Translations under genes and position numbers: made by a program
Notes under the pieces: generated by a model
The model's input: only the letters and a program-made list of their open reading frames with translations
What the model was told of the DNA's origin: nothing
Database searches by the model: none
Assembly (NCBI GenBank): GCA_048938445.1
Contig: JBHLME010000090.1
Coordinates: 1-18,399 of the forward strand
Direction: 5' to 3'
Source: Promethearchaeota archaeon
GTDB lineage: Archaea > Asgardarchaeota > Lokiarchaeia > Sigyniarchaeales > SOKP01
DNA: 18,399 nt
Shown: one piece after another, positions 980 through 16,724 of the stretch
Layout of the letters: every line of letters starts with the position of its first letter
Numbering within the stretch: the stretch's first letter is position 1

Positions 980-1651
980 TTACCATATTCTTGGAAAGAT
1001 ACGATACTTGGTTTTTTCCATGTATTCCTTATATCCTTTTAATTCTTTAACTAATAACCTCTCCTCACCTTTTACTCTAAATGGCATCAGTATAAGAATT
1101 ATAATAAAGGGAATTAAAGCAAAATAAGATCCTAAAGCAACGGGTGTAGAGCCATACATTATAATAATTGCTAAATACATGGGGTGCCGAACGAAGGCAT
1201 AGGGTCCCGTAGAAATAACCTTTTGAGAATCTTTTTCAACCTTAACCGTGCGACTGGCATAACTATTTTCCCTTAAAACTCTAAAGAAAAATTGATATCC
1301 AACCAAGAAAATAAGATCTGCTATGATAACCATGATGGGATTTATAGCTGACCATTCAAACCTTCTATCAAACCCCGGAATGATAAAAATGCTTAAAATC
1401 ATCACGCTCGAAAGTTTAACGATTAATTTTTGCTCTGATTGTGTTTCTTTTGGTTCCATTCGTCTTTTAAGTAATTCTGGATCATTCTTTAATAAAAATC
1501 TAAGAATTATTATCATTTGGATTACAAAGGTTGCTAAATATAACCAGGCTTCCCAATAAAAGATGGTACCCGCAGTTAAAAAGAACGCTAATGCTATTAA
1601 TATAAATAAAAAAGAAAACCTTCCTATTGCTTTGTTTTTAATTTTCTTCAA
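980..1651 (-). CDS. Isoprenylcysteine carboxylmethyltransferase (ICMT/STE14)-family membrane methyltransferase
   Basis: Multiple TM helices, then 'QKVISTGPYAFVRHPMY' and 'EERLL...GYKEYMEKTKYRIFPRIW', the characteristic C-terminal motifs of the ICMT/PEMT family. TTG start. Confidence 0.88.
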   Translation of the reverse strand: MKKIKNKAIGRFSFLFILIALAFFLTAGTIFYWEAWLYLATFVIQMIIILRFLLKNDPELLKRRMEPKETQSEQKLIVKLSSVMILSIFIIPGFDRRFEWSAINPIMVIIADLIFLVGYQFFFRVLRENSYASRTVKVEKDSQKVISTGPYAFVRHPMYLAIIIMYGSTPVALGSYFALIPFIIILILMPFRVKGEERLLVKELKGYKEYMEKTKYRIFPRIW

Positions 1652-5197: not shown

Positions 5198-7393
5198 CTA
5201 TTTAAATACGACTTGTTCAACTAGAAGATTTATTTCTACTAATTTTTTATTGATAAGCATGCGTACTTTATCTGCATTAATCTGTGGATTATTATTAACG
5301 ATATCTCGCACGGCATCACGATATTTTTTTCCCAATTTTGAAAGCATTAAGTGGGATTCATTAGACTCGTTAAATTGTGGTATTGGAAATGAAAATGGTC
5401 TTTTATGTATATGCCGTGAGCTTTTAATCAATTTAATGCTATTGGAGAGAATTGGAGCATTCAATATAGCAGATAAATAGAATGCTTCATCTTTAGAATC
5501 AGTAGAATAATAATAATTTTCTGATGGAATAATAATAGTTTTTTTAAAATTCTTAATAACTGCCGATTTTAGACTTGAACCAGAAGCATTATAAATTACA
5601 ATAAAATTATTGTTTTTATTCTGTTTAGTTAATTTATTCCAATAATTCATGTTTGAAAATAAAGTATTAATCGAACTGGTCTGTTTTTTATTTTTTTGAT
5701 AAATTTCATCTAATTCTGAATAAAATTTCATTGCTTTAGGATATTGATTTAAATAATCCGTATCAAAAAGAAATGCTTCATTAATAGGTAGAAACACGCG
5801 TTTATATTTTTTCAAACAAAAGGGAACTAAATCCTTATTTAAAAATGATTTAAACTTAAATTCTCGTTCAATTTCTCTATTTTGGAATTCAAATTTCCAC
5901 TTATTTTTTGCTCTAGATAATATATCGGGATCTGAAGATAATAAATATGATGAATCATCATTTTTATCCATTTTAAAAAATATTAAAGTACGTGGGACTA
6001 ATGTTGCTCCTTGGTAAAATTTTGACTTATAAGAACTATAAGAAATTTTATGTAAAAGTTCCAATTGATGAACTGGTATTATGAGTTTTGCTCCTTCTTT
6101 TTCAATCTTCAAGCTAGAATAATGAGTTTCCTCAATTACTGATAAATTTTCATTAAAGATTTTTGTTTTGATAGGATATTTCTCATTTGGTGTCTTATGG
6201 TCTTCAATTCCAATATATTCTGCTTTTAAGCAAATATTTGGAATATTAAATATATTTGTTGAGGGAAAATCCCAAATTTCAAGATTATCGAATATTGAAA
6301 AAGCTCTAAATTTATAACAGTGATCTCCATTCAAAACGCTTTTAGTTATAATTAAAAAGATTTTTCCACCGAATTTTAAAAACTTGGTAACAGCATAAAA
6401 AAAAACTGCCGCAAGCTCGATATGAGTAATATAATGACTCATCGGTTTAATTTTAAACCTTTCTGCTAAATTCCGGATATCCTCTTGATATTTCTTGCTA
6501 TTCAAATCTTTATATGTTATCCACGGGGGATTTCCTATTATTAAATCAAAATAATCATATAAATTCGTGAGATTATATCTCATTTGGGACTCATATCGCT
6601 CGGGAAATAATGAATCAATGATATATATATTTACATTAGGAATTTGATCTTCACTAAAATCAAAATGTTCTAAAAATACCAAGAATATATTTATCTTAGC
6701 AGTGTAAGTGGCAAGGGGGTTGACATCAAAACCATAGACGTTATTAATGGCATCAAGCTTTTCTTCATTGCTTTTCTCTTTATTGTTGAGAATAGATATA
6801 ATGATATTAATCAAGAAATTACCCGATCCGCAAGAAGGATCCAAAATTTTCTTACCAAATTCATAAAAATCATTAACCATCTTTTCGACGAGATTAGAAG
6901 GCGTGTAAAATTCTCCAATTTTATGGCGAATATCTGCAAAAAACAACTCTTGATAAAAATTAATGAACAAGTCTTCTTGCATGAAGGACTTATTTTCAAT
7001 TTCATCATAGATCATTGAAAATAGTTTTTTTGAAAAATCAATCCAATAAAAAGTATCAAACTCAAAGATATAAAAGGCTTCTAAATTATTTGACCTAAAA
7101 TCCCTGTAAGCCTCAGCAAAATCGATGTTTTGAATTAGACTCAAACGAGTTATCAATAAAGATTTCAAAACTAAAGAGAAATAGGTATGTTTGAGAAATA
7201 ACTCAGAATCAAGAACTCCACCATAAATCTCTTTATAAAGCTTTTTCCATTTAGTGAAAGTGATTTCATATTCTTTCTTTCGAGATGATTGCGCACTTTT
7301 TGTAAAGAAATCCATACTATTTTTATAGATCTCAGAACTCAATCCAAATGTTATAGAAATGTCTTTTTTTCCTACCTTTTTATACTCAACCAT
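5198..7393 (-). CDS. Amino (N6-adenine/N4-cytosine) DNA methyltransferase, gamma-class order, N-6 DNA methylase/Eco57I-like, with C-terminal putative target-recognition region
   Basis: Motif X GEFYTP, motif I ILDPSCGSGNF, 'YGFDVNP', motif IV IIGNPPW, in X-I-IV order, followed by about 350 aa of TRD-like sequence ('FYLSAILNAP'). Confidence 0.92.
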   Translation of the reverse strand: MVEYKKVGKKDISITFGLSSEIYKNSMDFFTKSAQSSRKKEYEITFTKWKKLYKEIYGGVLDSELFLKHTYFSLVLKSLLITRLSLIQNIDFAEAYRDFRSNNLEAFYIFEFDTFYWIDFSKKLFSMIYDEIENKSFMQEDLFINFYQELFFADIRHKIGEFYTPSNLVEKMVNDFYEFGKKILDPSCGSGNFLINIIISILNNKEKSNEEKLDAINNVYGFDVNPLATYTAKINIFLVFLEHFDFSEDQIPNVNIYIIDSLFPERYESQMRYNLTNLYDYFDLIIGNPPWITYKDLNSKKYQEDIRNLAERFKIKPMSHYITHIELAAVFFYAVTKFLKFGGKIFLIITKSVLNGDHCYKFRAFSIFDNLEIWDFPSTNIFNIPNICLKAEYIGIEDHKTPNEKYPIKTKIFNENLSVIEETHYSSLKIEKEGAKLIIPVHQLELLHKISYSSYKSKFYQGATLVPRTLIFFKMDKNDDSSYLLSSDPDILSRAKNKWKFEFQNREIEREFKFKSFLNKDLVPFCLKKYKRVFLPINEAFLFDTDYLNQYPKAMKFYSELDEIYQKNKKQTSSINTLFSNMNYWNKLTKQNKNNNFIVIYNASGSSLKSAVIKNFKKTIIIPSENYYYSTDSKDEAFYLSAILNAPILSNSIKLIKSSRHIHKRPFSFPIPQFNESNESHLMLSKLGKKYRDAVRDIVNNNPQINADKVRMLINKKLVEINLLVEQVVFK

Positions 7394-7493: not shown

Positions 7494-8030
7494 TTATCGC
7501 ATGAAAGAAGGAAGCATCAAGCTAAAAATCTCAGAAATCTTTTTTAATTTTGATTTTGATTCTACTGTGGTTGCAATTAAAATTGAACGTTCAAGTTCTT
7601 TACGATCTAATGAACCCCCCGCATAAATACCCCTTTTAGTATTGAAAACTAGCATGTATCTCACATTGGGATTATTAACTACCTTGATACCTGGATTAGA
7701 TTTAATCTCATCATAATATTGCTGGTATTCTGGTGGCATTCCACCTCTATCATTAGTAATTATCAACACGGGTATTCCTTTTGATGCAATTCTTTTTAAT
7801 TCTGTTGAATAAAACTGATCTATTTTAGGTGATACTATATTAAGTTGCTCCTCTGTTTGTCCTATTAATTCAATTAACAAGTCGTTAAGGATGGTTTTTT
7901 TCCCTTCAAATACTCCTGAAGATTGAATATTAATTGCTCCTACAAGTGTTAAAATTCGATCTTCTAATTTTTGGACTTGTTCTTTTAACCTTCGGTTTTC
8001 TAATCTTAATTCGATAATGCGGTCAGACAT
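7494..8030 (-). CDS. N-terminal coiled coil + degenerate phospholipase D-like (PLDc_2/TrmB-middle-like) domain protein
   Basis: Heptad-like 'LRLENRRLKEQVQKLEDRI'; then 'LIGQTEEQLNIVSPKID', 'KGIPVLIITN', 'GIKVVNNPNVRYMLVFNTKRGIYAGGSLD', which follow the PLD-fold strand order but lack HxKxxxxD. Confidence 0.6.
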   Translation of the reverse strand: MSDRIIELRLENRRLKEQVQKLEDRILTLVGAINIQSSGVFEGKKTILNDLLIELIGQTEEQLNIVSPKIDQFYSTELKRIASKGIPVLIITNDRGGMPPEYQQYYDEIKSNPGIKVVNNPNVRYMLVFNTKRGIYAGGSLDRKELERSILIATTVESKSKLKKISEIFSLMLPSFMR

Positions 8031-8110: not shown

Positions 8111-10612
8111 TTATAATACATTCCAAGGTGTTCCAAATAGTATAAATGACGATAGTGTGGCACTTTGGTTATTTTCAATATTTTTTTTGGATAGATCTTC
8201 CGATATTGCTTTTAATAATGCAATACCCTGATTATTTTTACTCAATATATAATTATAAAAACCGGTGATAATTTTTCTTGATTCATTGGTAAATACTGGA
8301 AAGTTTCTAGCAATAATTCCTTTTATATGACTATAATCAAAATGAGAAAATAGTTCACCAAGTATTTTTGTAGTATTGTTTATTTTTACTCCCTCGTCGT
8401 CAAAGATTTGTGCATTAAAAAATAGTAATGGATAAATATCATACGAATTTTGATTGATTGCTTTTAAAATTTCTTCAATTTTTATAATATTTTTATCATT
8501 AGTAATGAAATAACTATCTTTAGGGCTTTTTTTAGAATAATATATATTTCCGATAAAATGTATGATGTGAAGTTTATTTTGAGATAAATGAGATAAAATT
8601 TTATCGCGAGTACAAGTGCTCTCTGTTAAAATAGTCATAGAATTAACTTTTTCTGAATTTCTAAAGACATTTACAATGTGATTTAGTTCATTTTTACCTT
8701 CTATGAAGGGATAAATTAATTCTTTAACTTGTTTTTTTTCATTCCACTTGGTAGGGTAATTATCATTTATTGCTCCTATGATTAATACATCATGAACATC
8801 CTCTAAACTCATCATTCCTCTTTCGAAAGAGACCCCTCCAATATTTACTTCTCCAATTCGATAAGATGTTGAATATTGAAATAAGAAAAAATTATTATAA
8901 TGAATGAATTCAAAAGGAATCGTCATTGTATTTAATATTATAAAAACTTGAGGTATTTCCCCTTCTTCCTTAATTTCAAACTGAGTTATTATGTTTCTAA
9001 TTAATTTAGGAAGTGATAAGTAATAGATCCTCCCAAATTCATTTAAATCTAAATCATATTTCTTTGGTTTCGCAAATGAGAAGATGTCATCATAAATATC
9101 AGCTATTTGAGTGTCATTCCAATATTCATTTTGGATTTTTCCTTCAAATTCTGTACCTTCAGTTGATTTTATCCTAAAAGAAATTAATCCCTTTGAATTT
9201 ATATATAATATTAGCTTAGATATTTTAAAATTTGGATCAATAGTATTCATTACATCATCATCAAACGAATATATTTGAGGTTTTAATGATTGAGACTCTT
9301 CATGTAATTGAGGGAGATTAGATAATGATGCTTGAAGATCATTATCCAAAAAAGAGATGATTTTTGTAGCAAGATTGAGATCATTTTCTTCGAAAAGTGC
9401 TCTGTAAAATAGCATTCTCCAAAAATCGACTGGTTCTAATGAGTAATATAATGATTTAAATTGCCATAGGTAATTACAGGTATGGAAAAAATGAAAAATT
9501 TGTTCATTTGTTCTTGGAACTTTAAGATGCGTGTTTAACTTGTTCAATGATTGAAGTAAATATTTTTTATCCTTAATATTGACGAATTTCTTACTAGCTT
9601 CAATCCAAAGTTCAATTAAAATATTACTATATCCTAAATCCGATTTTAATATGAAAAGATCTTCTATGAAGTCATATATGCTAAAAGCTACTTCAAATTG
9701 GCTCCTGTTAATTAGAAAATCTATATATGTTCTGATATAGTTTATCGCATCAGGGAATGATTGAAATTCATTAATTTTAGAATACATGTATCTAATTACC
9801 ATTATGATCCAAGAATGCTCTCCAATATTATGCAAGTAGTGAATTAATTCTTCCAATTCAGTTAAAATTGTTGGGAATGTTCTCTCATTAATTGAAACTC
9901 TAGTTAATTTACCAAATTCATTTTTCAAACTGCTTGGAAGGCGATTTACTAAAAGTTTACTCATGAGCTTTACAAATTCTTGACCTTCCATCAAATCGAA
10001 TCTGATACTAATATTTTCCAAAAAGATATTAATAAATAAAGGGCGTTTATCAGGTTTTAATTCTGAGACAATTTTACTCAAGTTCTCCATGCTAAATATG
10101 AATAAATTAGTTGGAAGAACAGATTTTCTCAAAAACATTAGCAATATCTGCAATTCTATTAAATCTAAATAATTTCCTCTATTATACACATGATTACAAA
10201 AAGAATTGATAAATCTAGTAATTCCCGTCTGAGAGAGATTTTCCATTTTAATAAAAGACTTTAAGAGATTCGTGAAAAAAATGGAAAAATGGTAAAAATC
10301 GTCTAATTTTGATAAAAATGTAAAAAAGCGGTTATAGGCATCTAAATATTTAATAGGATCGAACTTGACTCCACTTTCATCCTTTTTTGTTAAAGAGTTT
10401 ATATAGATATGCCAACTATTAACAATGATCATTATTAATTGGTTCTTTTTTTGGACGTCCATCCATTCAGTTTTTTCAATTTCGAAATACAAATCATTAA
10501 ATAGTTTATCCGCCCAGCTGTGATTTGAAGTTAATAAAAGCTTTCGCCCTTGTATTATTTTTTTTTGAAAATTTTCAATAAAATTTTTTTTAATATCTAA
10601 TATTTCTGTCAT
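8111..10612 (-). CDS. Large alpha-helical protein with C-terminal CHAT (caspase-like) domain, predicted catalytically inactive
   Basis: About 450 aa of helical N-terminal sequence. The C-terminal part has CHAT landmarks: 'LNEFGRIYYLSLP', 'IPFEFIH', 'VLIIGA', 'ELNHIVNVF', 'CTRDKILSHL...HIIHFIGN', 'LLFFNAQ', 'SFILFGTPW'. ATG at 10612 is preferred over the track's TTG at 10621. Confidence 0.75.
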   Translation of the reverse strand: MTEILDIKKNFIENFQKKIIQGRKLLLTSNHSWADKLFNDLYFEIEKTEWMDVQKKNQLIMIIVNSWHIYINSLTKKDESGVKFDPIKYLDAYNRFFTFLSKLDDFYHFSIFFTNLLKSFIKMENLSQTGITRFINSFCNHVYNRGNYLDLIELQILLMFLRKSVLPTNLFIFSMENLSKIVSELKPDKRPLFINIFLENISIRFDLMEGQEFVKLMSKLLVNRLPSSLKNEFGKLTRVSINERTFPTILTELEELIHYLHNIGEHSWIIMVIRYMYSKINEFQSFPDAINYIRTYIDFLINRSQFEVAFSIYDFIEDLFILKSDLGYSNILIELWIEASKKFVNIKDKKYLLQSLNKLNTHLKVPRTNEQIFHFFHTCNYLWQFKSLYYSLEPVDFWRMLFYRALFEENDLNLATKIISFLDNDLQASLSNLPQLHEESQSLKPQIYSFDDDVMNTIDPNFKISKLILYINSKGLISFRIKSTEGTEFEGKIQNEYWNDTQIADIYDDIFSFAKPKKYDLDLNEFGRIYYLSLPKLIRNIITQFEIKEEGEIPQVFIILNTMTIPFEFIHYNNFFLFQYSTSYRIGEVNIGGVSFERGMMSLEDVHDVLIIGAINDNYPTKWNEKKQVKELIYPFIEGKNELNHIVNVFRNSEKVNSMTILTESTCTRDKILSHLSQNKLHIIHFIGNIYYSKKSPKDSYFITNDKNIIKIEEILKAINQNSYDIYPLLFFNAQIFDDEGVKINNTTKILGELFSHFDYSHIKGIIARNFPVFTNESRKIITGFYNYILSKNNQGIALLKAISEDLSKKNIENNQSATLSSFILFGTPWNVL

Positions 10613-10632
10613 GATAATCAACTTTTTCTATT

Positions 10633-11829
10633 TTATTCAACTCTATTTGGTTCAATATTAGTCATGCTAGGAGGTCTAGGCGTGGGATTATCGATCCACC
10701 CCTTTTGGAGCTGATTCTTTAGATATAAAATGGATGTTCCAATCCAACTCATGTGTTCCCTTCCCGATAAAGCAATCACGTTAATTTTTTCATTAATTTT
10801 ATCTGGAAAGAACTTATTCAGTTCATTTTTTAATCTATCTTTTAATCCAGGGATTAAACTTCCTCCTCCAGAGAGGATAATATTTGAAATGAGTTCTTCC
10901 CAATTTTCCCTATCCCATGATCTGATAATATTTGAAATAGCTTCTGCTAAACTAAAATAATCAATATGAATGAGTTTTGGATCAAATAAGGGTTCAGATA
11001 ACATGAATCTTTCAAAATTAATTTTTAAAGCGCTCCCATCTGGTAAGACAAACTCTTTATCATATTTATTAACACCTTCTTTTATTCTTTTTTTTTCCGC
11101 TTCCACGTTAAAAACACATAAAGAGGTTTCTTCTTTAATATCTTTGGCAATAAGATTATCAACATAATTTTTTTTACCACTTTCTTTTTGAGTAACACAC
11201 AAATTAAGTAAGTGCTTTGTTAATTCTTTCCCTGCTATAGGAAAGATATCTCGAGACATGATTTTATTGAATCCATGTAAGAAGGAATTAATGTATGTTC
11301 GAGATTCCCCCATGTTAACCACTATAGCACTGATTTTTTGGAGGGGTGCCATGATTGCTTGACTTTCAGATATGAATAGAAGTTTAGGAAAATTTAATTT
11401 TTCAAAAAAAATTTGTTGCAATTTTGATTTTTCTAGGTCTGTCATCAAGAAGGGGGCAATAATAATGATAGGTTGCATGTAGCGATATTCTTGTGCGATC
11501 TCTAACTTTTCATAGTAATGTTGAAAAAATTTCAATAAAATATTATAATTATTTTCTTTTTTAAATTCATGAATTTTTAATATATGTTTATAATCCAAAG
11601 CCTCTTGTCCAAATAAATTTTTTTCTACTCTTTCTTCACTTATAAAAATATCTTCTAAACCATCAATAATATCTGATGTAAATAAATAATCAGAGGCCTC
11701 AACATATACACTTGGAGTAATAATGACGGGATAATCATCTCCCGCAAAACCTAAGCGAAAGGTGTTGCTTCCAATATCTAATATCAATGGCCTTAAAGGA
11801 TCATTCTTTAACTCTTCTGCTGATGACAT
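10633..11829 (-). CDS. Divergent actin-family / actin-related protein (Asgard ARP-like)
   Basis: Phosphate-1 LILDIGSNTFRLGFAGDDYP, 'QIFFEKLNFPKL', phosphate-2 IVVNMGESRT, 'IAGKELTKHL', 'KDIKE', 'FVLPDG...ERF..SEPLFDP', adenosine NIILSGGGSLIPGLKDRLKNEL, 'SWIGTSIL'. Collinear with eukaryotic actin rather than MreB. Confidence 0.95.
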   Translation of the reverse strand: MSSAEELKNDPLRPLILDIGSNTFRLGFAGDDYPVIITPSVYVEASDYLFTSDIIDGLEDIFISEERVEKNLFGQEALDYKHILKIHEFKKENNYNILLKFFQHYYEKLEIAQEYRYMQPIIIIAPFLMTDLEKSKLQQIFFEKLNFPKLLFISESQAIMAPLQKISAIVVNMGESRTYINSFLHGFNKIMSRDIFPIAGKELTKHLLNLCVTQKESGKKNYVDNLIAKDIKEETSLCVFNVEAEKKRIKEGVNKYDKEFVLPDGSALKINFERFMLSEPLFDPKLIHIDYFSLAEAISNIIRSWDRENWEELISNIILSGGGSLIPGLKDRLKNELNKFFPDKINEKINVIALSGREHMSWIGTSILYLKNQLQKGWIDNPTPRPPSMTNIEPNRVE

Positions 11830-11895: not shown

Positions 11896-12822
11896 TCATA
11901 GACTGTGTATGTATTCATCCACATTTCTTTTAAATTGATATTCTTTTACCTGTAATTCAAGCATTCCCAGAACTTTTTTAAATTGATGTGATAGATTATC
12001 AATATCCACTTCAGCTATTTTCTCTACCTCACTTCGTTTAATAGCAAATTCATTTAAACTACTACGAATCTTCTCATAAGCATTATTAATGGATGAAACC
12101 AGATCTTCCGTATTTTTCTTGGTTACTTTTCTCATTTGTCTTAAAATGGATAATATGCTTGAAATTGATTCTTCCCACCTATTATATTTAGTATTATAAC
12201 CTTCAATTAATTCCTTGAAAAAATCCTCTAATTTTGGATAAATGCTTTCTTTTTTTACAAATGAAGGTTCTTTCTCAACAGAAGTACTTTCAACATCTTC
12301 TGGAGCTTGAGTCGTCTCAGAAGTGTCTGGTGCTCCAGGAATTCCAATCTTCTGAGGATGAGAGGGAGGAGCTTCATCTTTTGGCTTTTTTGGTAATGAA
12401 CTATCTATAAGATGTGTCCTTTGTTTTATTTCCTCTCTTGTTAACTTTCGCTCTGTTAAAGGTACATCTTCCATTAAAAAGTCTTCAACAATTTGTGTTT
12501 CCTTGCTATCGTAAACTAATTGTGGTTTGATTTTTTGTTCTTCCTTCACTTCACGACGATAAAATCCTTCACCAGAAGAAACATGGGATAATAATCCTTG
12601 TAAATCCACCTGAGTCTCTTTTGCACCTTCTAAAGCAGAATCCATTGCTTCTGCATCTTTCTTATGGGCTGCTAATGCAGCATCCAAAGATGCTATTGGC
12701 ATTGTTGCTGTAGTTGGTTGGGGAGTTGTATTAATTGACGGCTCCTCAAGTGATTCTTTTTCTTCTTTATCCTCTTTCTTTTTCTTCTCTTTCTTTTTCT
12801 TTTTTGCCATGAGAATTTCCAT
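11896..12822 (-). CDS. Hypothetical protein: poly-Lys N-terminus, disordered middle, C-terminal coiled coil
   Basis: MAKKKKKEKKKKEDKEEKE; P/E/T/S-rich centre; last ~110 aa are amphipathic helices. Start may be the ATG at 12810. Confidence 0.8.
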   Translation of the reverse strand: MEILMAKKKKKEKKKKEDKEEKESLEEPSINTTPQPTTATMPIASLDAALAAHKKDAEAMDSALEGAKETQVDLQGLLSHVSSGEGFYRREVKEEQKIKPQLVYDSKETQIVEDFLMEDVPLTERKLTREEIKQRTHLIDSSLPKKPKDEAPPSHPQKIGIPGAPDTSETTQAPEDVESTSVEKEPSFVKKESIYPKLEDFFKELIEGYNTKYNRWEESISSILSILRQMRKVTKKNTEDLVSSINNAYEKIRSSLNEFAIKRSEVEKIAEVDIDNLSHQFKKVLGMLELQVKEYQFKRNVDEYIHSL

Positions 12823-12966: not shown

Positions 12967-13374
12967 TTAGTCTAAAGGAACTATTTCTACTTTCAATGCT
13001 TCGCCTTCTGTTAAAAGCATTTCCTCTAGATCTTCTATATTTCTATCACTTGGTAGAGGTCCAATTACTTCCCACATTGCGGTCTTTTCTCTCTCTAAAG
13101 AGATTGATGTTCCATAAATAAGGGAAATATTTTTTTCTGCAAAAATATTAGCAATCTTAGCTAACGCACCGGGTATATCTTTCATGGTTATTCGAAACTT
13201 GACAGGATTAGCTTCCTGTGATATTCCAACAGGGCTTATCTTAATTTCTTTTGTCTCTGAATCTGCAATCATCATTAATTGAGAGTTGGTTGTTAGTCCT
13301 AAACTTTTTCGAATGATTTGAGGGATTACTATTCGACCTCTATTATCAATTGTTAAAATTCTTACTTCCTTCAT
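12967..13374 (-). CDS. AbrB/MazE/SpoVT-family DNA-binding domain fused to an ACT domain (ligand-responsive transcription regulator)
   Basis: 'LTIDNRGRIVIPQIIRKSLGL' is the AbrB swapped-hairpin signature; 'FRITMKDIPGALAKIANIFAEKNISL' is the ACT signature. Confidence 0.9.
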   Translation of the reverse strand: MKEVRILTIDNRGRIVIPQIIRKSLGLTTNSQLMMIADSETKEIKISPVGISQEANPVKFRITMKDIPGALAKIANIFAEKNISLIYGTSISLEREKTAMWEVIGPLPSDRNIEDLEEMLLTEGEALKVEIVPLD

Positions 13375-13550: not shown

Positions 13551-13886
13551 CTAATACTGAGATGGAGTTAATTCTACTTTAGCACTGGGTTCTAATATGA
13601 CGCATAACACGTGTTCCCTTCCTGCTTGGGTTATGATAATCTTACTTTCTTTTCCTTCAATCACTACCTGTTGCAGTGAACCAATTGAACACTCATCCAT
13701 AAATCTTTCAGCCATGGAATGAATTGCTGCTAACATTGGACTTATTAATGAATCATCAATATTTTGAGGAAATTTTGAAGATATTGGAACACCTTTTTTC
13801 GAAAGAATGAAGGATCCTTTAACATCTGAATTCGTTAGTCTAAGTTTATCTAATAAAATATTATAAGAATCTGAATTTTTTTCCAA
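13551..13886 (-). CDS. Roadblock/LC7 domain protein, short form lacking the C-terminal helix
   Basis: 'DVKGSFILSKKGVPISS', 'ISPMLAAIHSMAERFMDECSIGSLQQVVIEGKESKIIITQAGREHVLCVI'; the protein ends shortly after the last strand. TTG start. Confidence 0.9.
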   Translation of the reverse strand: MEKNSDSYNILLDKLRLTNSDVKGSFILSKKGVPISSKFPQNIDDSLISPMLAAIHSMAERFMDECSIGSLQQVVIEGKESKIIITQAGREHVLCVILEPSAKVELTPSQY

Positions 13887-14057: not shown

Positions 14058-16265
14058 CTATGCTCTATGTGCCTTTAGTTTAACGGTTAAATCGCGAGCT
14101 CGTTTTGAATACCATACTAACAAGTCTCCAGCATTTTCTGGCTTGTAATACTCACCACCACACAATGCTGCTGCTTTATTCATCAGATTATCATCAGGAT
14201 TTCCTAATCCAATGACATATATTACAACATTAGGATTCTCAGAAAACCTGCGGATCTCGTTGAAGAAGGCATCTCCATCGGTGGGGACACCATCAGTTAG
14301 CAAGACTATCATTGTTGGTTGATCTTTTGACATCTTATCAAACTCATTTAACACTTGATGTGCTGCTACCATTGCTTGTCCCATGTTAGTAGCTTGACCA
14401 TAAGCATTTCCAATTCGATCAACAATGACCCTAGCAGCATCTTCAAGAACTCCTTTCTTACCCGATGCGGAGTCCATGTAATAACTACCTCCAAAAGGTA
14501 ATACTTGTGCTTCATCAGCAAATCTTATTACACTTACTTTTTCTCCAAAACCCCTTCCTACTTTTTCACTCAAGAATAAAACAGCTGCAAAAGCCGCAGA
14601 AATTCTACGAGGTATGTTGACCCCATCTTTAAAATGAACCAAAAATTCTTGAATTTCTCTTGATTCCATTGCTGCTTTAATTCCTTCAATGGCAGGAGCT
14701 ATATTCGTGACTAATACATCTCGTGCCATCATTGAACGACTTATATCGATTATAAGAATGGCATTGAAAGGGATTAATCCTACAGGTGCCAATGATAAAG
14801 TCGTATTAGAGGTTATTTGAGCTAATATATCACCAGTCAAATCAGGAACACATTGGATAATCGAGCATGCTACATTGGCTTGAGCCCATCTTAACTTAAT
14901 ACCTTTAAATATGATATAATTTGATAACCAGATTTTTAAAGGTTCTACATTTGTTCGAACCATGCTGATTATTTGCCACATGTTCTCTCCAGAAATGGGC
15001 GCGATTCCCAATGAAACGCTTTGTAAGGGTATTATTTGCCGTTGATTTTTAGTTACCGTTACTTCAAAACTGCCTATACCTGATGCTTCAAGTATTTCAC
15101 TATCGATATAAATTGCATTGTCGGGCACGTTTTCGACTATCTGAACTTTACCCGCGCCTACAGCTCCTGTAAGTTCATCTGAAAATGCAATTACATCATT
15201 GGATTGGATTGAAAGGGTGTGTTGGATTCTTGGACTTACTTGACAGAATCCCATTAAATTTGGCTGTGAATGCACCTCTAGCATTATCTGAGATGTTTTA
15301 TGAATTGGTGGTTCGGTTGAATATACAACTATCTGATTTGATTGTATGTTTGTATCTTCTTTCGTATCCAAGCTCATCCTAATCTGTGAAGGATTTATGG
15401 TTATTACATCAATTCTAGCTGAACCAACGGATCTTGAAACTGGATCCTCCCAAGCTATCAACATTCCTTGACCTAATCCCAATGATTGTACAAGATTTGG
15501 ACTGAGTTGTACTCTTCCTCCTTGTAATGTTGAATCAACTACAACGGAGAGAATTATACCATTTTTTTGAGATTGTAGCATGTTAATGTCTATGGCATTA
15601 GCATACGTTGCTGCGGGCGCTGCTCGTTGAGCAGGTGGAGGGCCATATGCTCCAGGAGTTGGTTGGGATGGTGTATATTGTGATGGTGGTTGAGGCATGG
15701 GACTAAGTTGAGATGGAGGAGTATATTGTGGTTGTGGTGTTGGTTGTGGCGGTGGAGGAGAATATTGTGTTTGAGGTGTTGGTTGTGGTGGAGGAGGAAA
15801 ATATTGAGGTTGAGGTGTTGGTTGTGGTGGAGGTGGTGAAATTTGAGGTTCCGGAATTGAGGTGGGCATTGTTTTTGCAGAAGGGGCAGCTAAACGCGCT
15901 CCTGGTTGCACAGGTGCGGGAATGGGAATAGGTTCCTTGACAGGTTTAGTCTGAGGTAGTTTTGATGTAGGTTTCTTTTTTTTACCTTTACTAGGCGTCT
16001 TTACTTTACCACTTGATGGTCTAATCGTTAATTCTACCCCATCAAATTTTACTTTATCGAGAATATCTTTTGAAAATCGTCCCGCAAAATCTAGTATTTG
16101 ATCTGAAATGTTTATTTTTGCTGAAGTAACCATGAGATTGTCATCATTCACTACATCAACCATTCCACCGTTTTGTACGCCTAATTTTTTTGCATTTTCT
16201 TCACAAATTACTAAAGTACCTGAACTTTTTTCATCTATATCTACAAAAATTTTAATTTCTGTCAT
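14058..16265 (-). CDS. Multidomain protein: CDC48-N-like double-psi barrels, Pro/Gln-rich linker, CDC48 domain-2-like region, C-terminal vWA domain
   Basis: vWA MIDAS 'ILIIDISRSM', 'ATNMGQAM', 'IVLLTDGVP', 'IYVIGLG', 'AALCGGEYY'. Three units resemble CDC48-N: 'AKKLGVQNGGMVDV', 'VQSLGLGQGMLIAW', 'QHTLSIQSNDVIAF'. No Walker A. ATG at 16265 is preferred over TTG at 16274. The vWA call is firm; the CDC48-N call is moderate. Confidence 0.8.
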   Translation of the reverse strand: MTEIKIFVDIDEKSSGTLVICEENAKKLGVQNGGMVDVVNDDNLMVTSAKINISDQILDFAGRFSKDILDKVKFDGVELTIRPSSGKVKTPSKGKKKKPTSKLPQTKPVKEPIPIPAPVQPGARLAAPSAKTMPTSIPEPQISPPPPQPTPQPQYFPPPPQPTPQTQYSPPPPQPTPQPQYTPPSQLSPMPQPPSQYTPSQPTPGAYGPPPAQRAAPAATYANAIDINMLQSQKNGIILSVVVDSTLQGGRVQLSPNLVQSLGLGQGMLIAWEDPVSRSVGSARIDVITINPSQIRMSLDTKEDTNIQSNQIVVYSTEPPIHKTSQIMLEVHSQPNLMGFCQVSPRIQHTLSIQSNDVIAFSDELTGAVGAGKVQIVENVPDNAIYIDSEILEASGIGSFEVTVTKNQRQIIPLQSVSLGIAPISGENMWQIISMVRTNVEPLKIWLSNYIIFKGIKLRWAQANVACSIIQCVPDLTGDILAQITSNTTLSLAPVGLIPFNAILIIDISRSMMARDVLVTNIAPAIEGIKAAMESREIQEFLVHFKDGVNIPRRISAAFAAVLFLSEKVGRGFGEKVSVIRFADEAQVLPFGGSYYMDSASGKKGVLEDAARVIVDRIGNAYGQATNMGQAMVAAHQVLNEFDKMSKDQPTMIVLLTDGVPTDGDAFFNEIRRFSENPNVVIYVIGLGNPDDNLMNKAAALCGGEYYKPENAGDLLVWYSKRARDLTVKLKAHRA
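15708..15848 (-). repeat. Imperfect 39-bp (13-aa) coding tandem repeat, 3 full copies plus a partial one
   Basis: PQISPPPPQPTPQ (15810-15848), PQYFPPPPQPTPQ (15771-15809), TQYSPPPPQPTPQ (15732-15770), PQYTPPSQ (15708-15731). Confidence 0.88.
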
Positions 16266-16334
16266 TATTATCAAATACTTTTTTCTTGATTAGAAATTAC
16301 CATGAATTTTAAAATATAAATTTCTGAGTATGGA

Positions 16335-16724
16335 TTAAGGAACGGGATATCTTTTTCCAATCTCACCAGCATAATAACGGAATACAGTTACTACCTTTCC
16401 CAAATCTTCAAGCTTCCTACATGCTCCCATCAAGAAAAATCGTCCTGCTGAGCTTAAAATAATGAAAGCATCACTTCCCCTTAATACTACTTCAAGCATC
16501 TGATGATAACCTAATGATGAGACTGCCTCTGAAGCACTCTGTAGCACTACAGCGCTCATGCTTGAAAATAAGTCTGCATTGACTTCATAAGTAGGAATAG
16601 AAGAAAAGGCTAATTTTAGACCTTCACGGGTTATTAACGCAAGAGCTTCCAATTCAGTGTGTTCAGTAATATTTCCTAAAAAATTTGATAAGCTCAATGC
16701 TTCTTCGGGTGTTAAATCGCTCAT
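16335..16724 (-). CDS. Roadblock/LC7 (MglB/LAMTOR2-like) domain protein, full-length form
   Basis: 'LEALALITREGLKLAFS', 'LFSSMSAVVLQSASEAVSSLGYHQMLEVVLRGSDAFIILSSAG', and C-terminal helix 'DLGKVVTVFRYYAGEIGKRY'. Confidence 0.88.
   Translation of the reverse strand: MSDLTPEEALSLSNFLGNITEHTELEALALITREGLKLAFSSIPTYEVNADLFSSMSAVVLQSASEAVSSLGYHQMLEVVLRGSDAFIILSSAGRFFLMGACRKLEDLGKVVTVFRYYAGEIGKRYPVP

Follow-up and report, generated by a model that had tools for sequence, protein, structure and literature searches.

The window analysed here, an 18,399-nucleotide (nt) stretch of contig JBHLME010000090.1 (assembly GCA_048938445.1) from a Promethearchaeota archaeon, carries a gene for an actin-related protein (ARP) followed closely by a gene for a CHAT-like protein in which both catalytic residues of the protease are replaced. 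It is AT-rich (GC range 0.25-0.42) and belongs to a Lokiarchaeial genome. Both genes lie on the minus strand, the ARP gene at 10633-11829 (398 amino acids) and the CHAT-like open reading frame (ORF) at 8111-10621 (836 amino acids from a TTG start). Counted from the ARP stop codon, the spacer would be 11 nt with the TTG at 10621 and is 20 nt (10613-10632) with the ATG at 10612; a preliminary description of the locus had put the distance at 11-20 bp, which covers both starts. It had also called the 836-residue frame intact. The ORF is indeed open throughout, but a protein of 833 residues is the most likely product, because the N-termini of the orthologues begin at the position of the ATG and the ESM Atlas record of the protein begins at residue 4 of the TTG-numbered ORF. 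Residue numbers below follow the ATG start. Homologues of the CHAT-like protein carry the source labels Promethearchaeota or Lokiarchaeota.

In Pfam, the CHAT-like protein matches the CHAT family (PF12770) at 24.7 bits against a cut-off of 24 over residues 554-830 (27.7 bits in a six-frame search); NCBIfam and PADLOC hold no match for it. Its AlphaFold2 model, derived from a 59-sequence alignment, has a predicted local distance difference test score (pLDDT) of 86.7 and a predicted template modelling score (pTM) of 0.80, and falls into three parts, all encoded on the minus strand. Residues 1-441 (9290-10612) form an all-helical domain of TPR-like repeats with 22 helices spanning residues 2-441, which aligns with the TPR part of Csx29 and is the best-conserved portion of the protein (2.91 bits per column versus 2.64 for the C-terminal domain). 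Residues 464-593 (8834-9223) are alpha/beta, with counterparts in separase (its pseudo-protease subdomain) and in gingipain (its N-terminal subdomain), and residues 594-833 (8114-8833) are a caspase-like domain without the dyad.

The preliminary description had assigned a CHAT fold of the caspase-hemoglobinase type to the C-terminal part, behind a helical N-terminus, and this is what the structural comparisons recover. Foldseek against the PDB ranks Csx29/TPR-CHAT on top (E 1e-11), followed by DdvA (E 3.8e-9) and the separases, all three at probability 1.00, with SAVED-CHAT, MALT1 and gingipain among the further matches. On realignment with VIA, Csx29 reaches Z 18-19.7, the protease domain of Chaetomium thermophilum separase (5fc2_B) 18.6 (root-mean-square deviation, rmsd, 3.8 Å over 286 residues, model residues 464-833), SAVED-CHAT 17.2 (rmsd 2.9 Å), gingipain R (1cvr) 16.0, also to model residues 464-833, DdvA 15.2-15.5, and caspase-7 14.4, the last aligned from residue 594 only (594-833). 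ESM Atlas points to the same fold. PDB sequence searches with the full-length and C-terminal profiles returned chance-level matches only (E 0.13 or higher), so kinship to solved CHAT structures shows in fold comparison only; among protein sequences, canonical CHAT proteins are within reach of a family profile, at E 1e-16 to 1e-6. The predicted structure thus confirms an architecture of helical repeats, pseudo-protease subdomain and caspase-like domain, as found in separase and Craspase.

Neither member of the catalytic His-Cys dyad is present in this domain. The motifs HFIGNI (8543-8560) and FFNAQ (8408-8422) lie where they had been reported, and the His column is occupied by Asn689 (codon 8546-8548, minus strand) and the Cys column by Gln735 (codon 8408-8410, minus strand). 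In the model, strand 683-691 has Asn689 close to its end and strand 729-737 contains Gln735; the dyad of clan CD enzymes is located in this region. Across 24 orthologous loci the His column reads N in 23 and I in one, and the Cys column reads Q in 18, K in two, R in two, H in one and V in one; the replacement of both residues, first claimed for the window protein, therefore holds for every orthologue examined. The C-terminal 289 residues of the 24 orthologues were made into a profile and searched against 1.84 billion representative proteins, giving 409 matches at E up to 0.001, and the best 150 of the 409 were aligned by hmmalign. No His or Cys occurs in the dyad columns of the first 38 of these rows, which extend to E 2.8e-16 and include several fragments; their residues are N 26, Y 2, S 1, T 1 and V 1 (7 gaps) in the His column and Q 17, R 11, K 2, L 1 and V 1 (6 gaps) in the Cys column. 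The remaining 112 rows read as canonical CHAT, with (I/V)IH(F/Y)(A/S)GH and FLNAC. His is present in 105 of the 112, and Cys in the exact column in 55 and within a few columns in 96, the offset being due to alignment jitter. The boundary between the 38 and the 112 was set where the dyad first appears, and the counts are descriptive, not a blind test. In the orthologue alignment, no column of residues 545-833 is at least 90% His or Cys, and general CHAT structural motifs near the relic site are kept (G688, P697, S700, T704 and D706). The nearest dyad-bearing CHAT relatives, P0177 (E 6.7e-16, 1122 amino acids) and P0162 (E 3e-12, 1139 amino acids), are covered over the whole domain; one of them has the source label Promethearchaeota, a hint of an Asgard CHAT paralogue as the origin of the pseudoprotease. 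The loss of the dyad is old, older than the divergence of those Lokiarchaeales families in which the gene occurs.

The gene has been maintained under constraint since that loss. Eight pairs of orthologues were used to estimate the ratio of nonsynonymous to synonymous substitution rates (dN/dS), and five were dropped because dS exceeded 1.6 or the estimate failed. The sole unsaturated pair (L017/L018, dS 0.71) gives a dN/dS of 0.12 overall and 0.08 for the C-terminal third, and two pairs with dS of 1.2-1.4 give 0.14-0.15. Full-length open frames occur in dozens of genomes. The earlier statement that the frame is kept is thus borne out at the level of purifying selection (0.08-0.15). Together, the common loss of the dyad, the freely drifting Cys column, the retained Asn and structural motifs and the strong purifying selection establish the protein as a pseudoprotease.

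Among 301 Asgard genomes, the CHAT-like gene is found in 63 of the 68 genomes of the window's family and two of the seven of its sister family; one further family gives a weak CHAT-only match, in a single genome, and none was detected in the other 27 Asgard families sampled. An additional family with the gene (1/1) came from a search of 41 related genomes. The gene thus appears to be restricted to Lokiarchaeales. It is typically present as a single copy, and a six-frame search of the window's own genome found no second CHAT match. The most divergent member, P0155, has no locus in the genome or metagenome contigs searched; used as a query against the 301 Asgard genomes it retrieves the same orthologous loci only, at 17-23% identity.

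The product of the upstream gene is a divergent member of the actin family. It matches Pfam Actin (PF00022) at 167 bits (E 5e-49) over residues 11-379 of 398, its best PDB match is actin (E 1e-38, with PDB actins ranging from 1e-38 to 1e-32), and its identity to actins is about 30% across the aligned part. Two loops, phosphate-1 (DIGS) and GGGS, are conserved. As the phosphate-2 motif, which we take to correspond to DxGDG of actin, most orthologues have NMGES and the distant ones DIGYYS, and the positions that we take to be equivalent to the catalytic residues Gln137 and His161 of actin vary among orthologues. Beyond the actin fold comes a further conserved motif, GW(I)xNP. From these features the ARP is predicted to bind nucleotide and may hydrolyse it poorly, like several eukaryotic Arps. 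We also considered whether it is the Lokiactin orthologue and rejected this. Of the five actin-family matches in its own genome the ARP is only the fourth (164 bits), the best being a 424-bit actin encoded elsewhere (C136), and on the ARP profile its orthologues score at least 435 bits as opposed to about 200 bits for Lokiactin-type genes.

The two genes are inherited together. The CHAT-like gene is present in 28 of the 41 related genomes. Scores of the ARP profile over the same genomes are bimodal, 25 at 435 bits or more and the rest at 244 bits or less, the low-scoring group consisting of Lokiactin and other paralogues. In each of the 25 ARP-bearing genomes the ARP orthologue is the immediate upstream neighbour of the CHAT-like gene, in the same orientation. 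Thirteen genomes have neither gene (completeness 63-93%, two of them single-contig), and the three with a CHAT-like match but without a full ARP hold contig-end fragments only (G002, G022 and G035, the ARP of G035 being apparently split over two contig ends). By tblastn the ARP is upstream in 24 of 24 loci, that of L020 as a fragment at a contig end. The spacer between the genes, measured over 23 loci with starts chosen by us, ranges from -4 to 87 nt with a median of 26. The pair remains adjacent in loci whose proteins share as little as 23-27% identity with the window's, while the outer flanks change. The adjacency that the preliminary description had pointed out is therefore conserved over order-level divergence.

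The pair is part of a larger unit. Together with a coiled-coil protein encoded upstream and a PLD-fold protein without histidine encoded downstream, the ARP and the pseudo-CHAT protein make up a conserved four-gene module that had been overlooked, including its second pseudo-enzyme. The upstream gene (11896-12822, minus strand) encodes a coiled-coil protein of 308 amino acids. An alignment of nine full-length copies shows an N-terminus rich in Lys, then a variable linker that is disordered or Pro-rich (poly-Pro in some orthologues, such as L017 and L018), and finally a helical domain of about 115 residues that is conserved at the C-terminal end. A Pfam scan of it found no family above the cut-off. 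By tblastn its C-terminal part immediately precedes the ARP in 23 of 24 loci, the one miss (L020) being cut at a contig end.

The downstream gene (7494-8030, minus strand) encodes 178 amino acids with an N-terminal coiled coil and a domain of PLD/Nuc fold (AlphaFold2 pLDDT 81). Foldseek matches of this protein include NucT (E 6e-8), Nuc (TM-score 0.63-0.72), Zucchini, FAM83 DUF1669 and TrmBL2; Pfam PLDc_2 is below threshold (20.4 bits, cut-off 27). The protein contains no histidine, the same is true of 10 of 21 orthologues, and no conserved His column exists among the 21. It therefore cannot carry an HKD site (HxK(x)4D), which makes it the second pseudo-enzyme of the module. All 21 aligned copies terminate in the same LPSFMR (7497-7514 in the window), and this Arg-ending tail could be a docking peptide. 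Of 23 assessable loci, 22 have the gene downstream and L007 lacks it there; L009 is cut. Within the module, the spacer between the ARP and CHAT-like genes is the shortest, at 20 nt versus 66 and 80 nt.

Further downstream, on the minus strand at 5198-7393, lies a gene for an N6-adenine methyltransferase of 731 amino acids with N6_Mtase, Eco57I and MmeI_Mtase domains, which matches models of type IIG restriction-modification, MADS and BREX methyltransferases. A Pfam scan of the 16 ORFs of the window found no Cas family, and a tandem-repeat scan found no CRISPR array.

Upstream of the module, at 12967-13374 on the minus strand, is a gene for a 135-residue AbrB/MazE-like protein with an ACT domain (NCBIfam PRK08577, 92 bits, below cut-off), which occurs at the same place in three of eight wider loci (L016, L021 and L024). 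The gene at 14058-16274 (minus strand) encodes a 738-residue protein with a C-terminal VWA domain and is flanked by two Roadblock/LC7 genes (13551-13886 and 16335-16724). It holds a Pro/Gln-rich tandem repeat at 15715-15850, with 3.5 copies of a PPPPQPTPQPQY-like unit of 39 nt, in a local GC-rich stretch of positive GC skew. Near the other end of the window, 980-1651 (minus strand) encodes a 223-residue membrane protein of the isoprenylcysteine carboxyl methyltransferase/phospholipid methyltransferase family (Pfam ICMT, 35.7 bits). A scan for sigma-70 promoters and terminators gave 41 sites against 37.7 expected, with a model not applicable to archaea.

Taken together, we consider it probable, with some reserve, that the CHAT-like protein is an ancient pseudoprotease that is the operon partner of the divergent ARP and acts within a non-catalytic four-gene complex as a scaffold or regulator. 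The strict co-inheritance and adjacency, the tight spacing and the two further conserved small genes argue for a common function and probably for a complex. The 833-residue protein is a pseudoprotease of the TPR-CHAT/separase type, with Asn in place of the catalytic His and Gln in place of the catalytic Cys, maintained after an old loss of the dyad by purifying selection as a single-copy gene. It would be translated from the same operon as the ARP, with which it is presumably co-transcribed, and the four products would assemble into a complex without catalytic activity. There the pseudo-CHAT protein may hold or control the ARP, without cleaving it, in the role of a scaffold or regulatory subunit, by analogy with separase and Csx29, which hold their partners with the helical domain and the substrate cleft. 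Of the reading given in the preliminary description, a pseudo-protease kept as a scaffold or peptide-binding partner of the ARP, the first part is supported by fold, dyad, selection and adjacency, and the second is suggested by gene linkage.

Several points weigh against this reading. The Pfam CHAT match barely exceeds its cut-off, and the equivalence of the dyad residues depends on profile alignment and on their position in predicted strands. Five of the 68 genomes of the window's family lack a match at a completeness of 81-99%. A few genomes (G010, G016 on contig C48, G250, G205 and G022) hold a copy that is split into pieces, such as two overlapping ones, or is interrupted by in-frame stops; these copies may reflect assembly error or real decay, between which the data do not distinguish. 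With its changed catalytic positions the ARP is at most a putative ATPase and filament former. Its binding by the CHAT-like protein, suggested by the linkage of the genes, and a connection to the cytoskeleton are likewise putative. A complex prediction for ARP residues 10-383 with CHAT-like residues 209-833, run without controls, scored 0.01 against a mark of 0.32 and counts neither way.

Known proteins of the same architecture offer partial parallels. The best structural match, Csx29/TPR-CHAT of the type III-E CRISPR system (Craspase), has the same helical repeats and CHAT domain and works bound to a large partner protein encoded alongside. It differs in having an active His-Cys dyad and in being activated by RNA, whereas the CHAT-like protein has Asn and Gln at these positions and is only 8-12% identical to it. 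Nor does the locus resemble a type III-E one, as the neighbours are the ARP, the coiled-coil protein and the PLD-fold protein, with neither a Cas family nor an array in the window. Separase (clan CD, family C50) shares with the CHAT-like protein the order of helical N-terminus, pseudo-protease subdomain and caspase-like domain. In contrast to the CHAT-like protein, it has protease activity, with cleavage after Arg, and it is far larger. As described in an excerpt of PMC11506125, separase holds one dead caspase-like subdomain and binds the pseudosubstrate securin. Direct ancestry to eukaryotic separase was considered and dropped, as separase fares no better than Csx29 in the Z-scores and searches outside Lokiarchaeales did not find the gene. 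The anti-sigma factor DdvA of Myxococcus uses the same TPR-CHAT fold mainly as a regulatory or steric module; unlike the CHAT-like protein, it keeps its dyad (H862/C907 in the excerpted text of PMC11506125), is anchored in the membrane and is periplasmic. Loss of the dyad has a precedent in the pseudo-orthocaspases, prokaryotic caspase homologues in which, according to the part of PMC6426788 at hand, the dyad is replaced by Tyr/Ser and the proteins are nevertheless conserved. These are p20 orthocaspases of cyanobacteria and belong to another branch, without the TPR-CHAT architecture or an ARP neighbour. The 178-residue protein likewise has precedents in FAM83 DUF1669 and the C-terminal domain of TrmB/TrmBL2, binding modules of PLD fold without phosphodiesterase function that are among its Foldseek matches (5qhm, 5lzk and 5bpd). 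Its best matches are active nucleases (NucT, Zucchini and Nuc), although at 10-17% identity the kinship is at the level of the fold only.

The alternative that survives best, while still unlikely, is that the linkage reflects synteny only, so that the ARP and the CHAT-like protein act independently or the latter has the coiled-coil or the PLD-fold protein as its partner instead of the ARP. It is favoured by the fact that binding of the ARP is proposed from linkage, and the invariant LPSFMR tail of the PLD-fold protein does resemble a docking peptide. Arguing the other way are the strict co-occurrence of the two genes (both in 25 genomes, neither in 13, and contig-end fragments in three), their persistence side by side where sequence identity is lowest and the outer flanks have changed, and a spacer shorter than any other in the module.

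Improbable in our view is a domesticated or decaying defence system, in which a CHAT protease and a PLD nuclease are former effectors and the actin-fold ATPase a sensor, with no cytoskeletal role. CHAT and PLD-fold domains are common among prokaryotic defence effectors. DdvA and Craspase illustrate this in the excerpt of PMC11506125, and the methyltransferase gene at 5198-7393, which matches restriction-type models, is syntenic in 13 of 24 loci, many of them from genomes of the same family. That gene is absent from the distant loci (L016-L023), however, and both presumed effectors lack their catalytic residues. None of the four core proteins has a meaningful score in PADLOC (2023 library), which returned no match for the CHAT-like protein, the ARP and the PLD-fold protein and only weak coiled-coil-type matches for the coiled-coil protein (E 7.5e-4 and 3.8e-3). 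Moreover, the CHAT-like gene is typically single-copy, syntenic and near-universal within one family (63/68), which fits vertical housekeeping inheritance, unlike the patchy distribution of defence islands. A residual protease that works through non-canonical residues, for instance Asn689 paired with a different nucleophile or a partner that completes the dyad in trans, is very improbable: the nearly invariant Asn (23 of 24 loci; 26 of 31 rows) and the retained motifs around it do show that the relic site is constrained, and DdvA is described in the excerpt of PMC11506125 as having an incomplete CHAT site perhaps completed by a partner, but the Cys column varies freely among Q, R, K, H, V and L, which is a poor fit for a nucleophile, residues 545-833 contain no conserved His or Cys, and the structurally characterised TPR-CHAT proteins matched here (Csx29 of Craspase, DdvA and separase) are all described in the same excerpt as retaining the His-Cys dyad.

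Within the preferred reading of a non-catalytic partner of the ARP, a more specific arrangement can be envisaged, which we put forward as speculation with little expectation that it is right in full. The module would be an Asgard-specific machine for regulating the ARP, built from two fossil enzymes: the pseudo-CHAT protein would clamp the ARP, its relic cleft would hold the LPSFMR-COOH tail, and the upstream protein, basic at its N-terminus and with its Pro-rich linker and helical C-terminal domain, would act like a nucleation-promoting or anchoring factor. The tail resembles the product of a separase- or gingipain-type cut because it ends in Arg. If this were true, the module would be the first defined set of partners for any Asgard ARP, and a protease-substrate pair would have been frozen into a permanent complex.

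Besides Lokiactin, Asgard archaea have several ARPs. In L. ossiferum, three ARPs are expressed at lower levels than Lokiactin according to the portion of PMC9834061 at hand, and neither that portion nor the accessible text of a recent preprint (10.1101/2025.07.24.666526) assigns a function or partner to Lokiarchaeal ARPs. The literature searched on Asgard CHAT proteins, actins and separase yielded nothing on this pair of ARP and CHAT-like genes. The ARP lineage thus gains a strictly co-inherited set of candidate partners. The TPR-CHAT/separase architecture, so far known as that of an active, regulated protease, has a long-lived non-catalytic form under purifying selection. Because the gene appears restricted to Lokiarchaeales, the finding is of more relevance to Lokiarchaeal cell biology than to eukaryogenesis, and the locus suggests that a cytoskeletal protein of the Asgard archaea may have a non-enzymatic partner.

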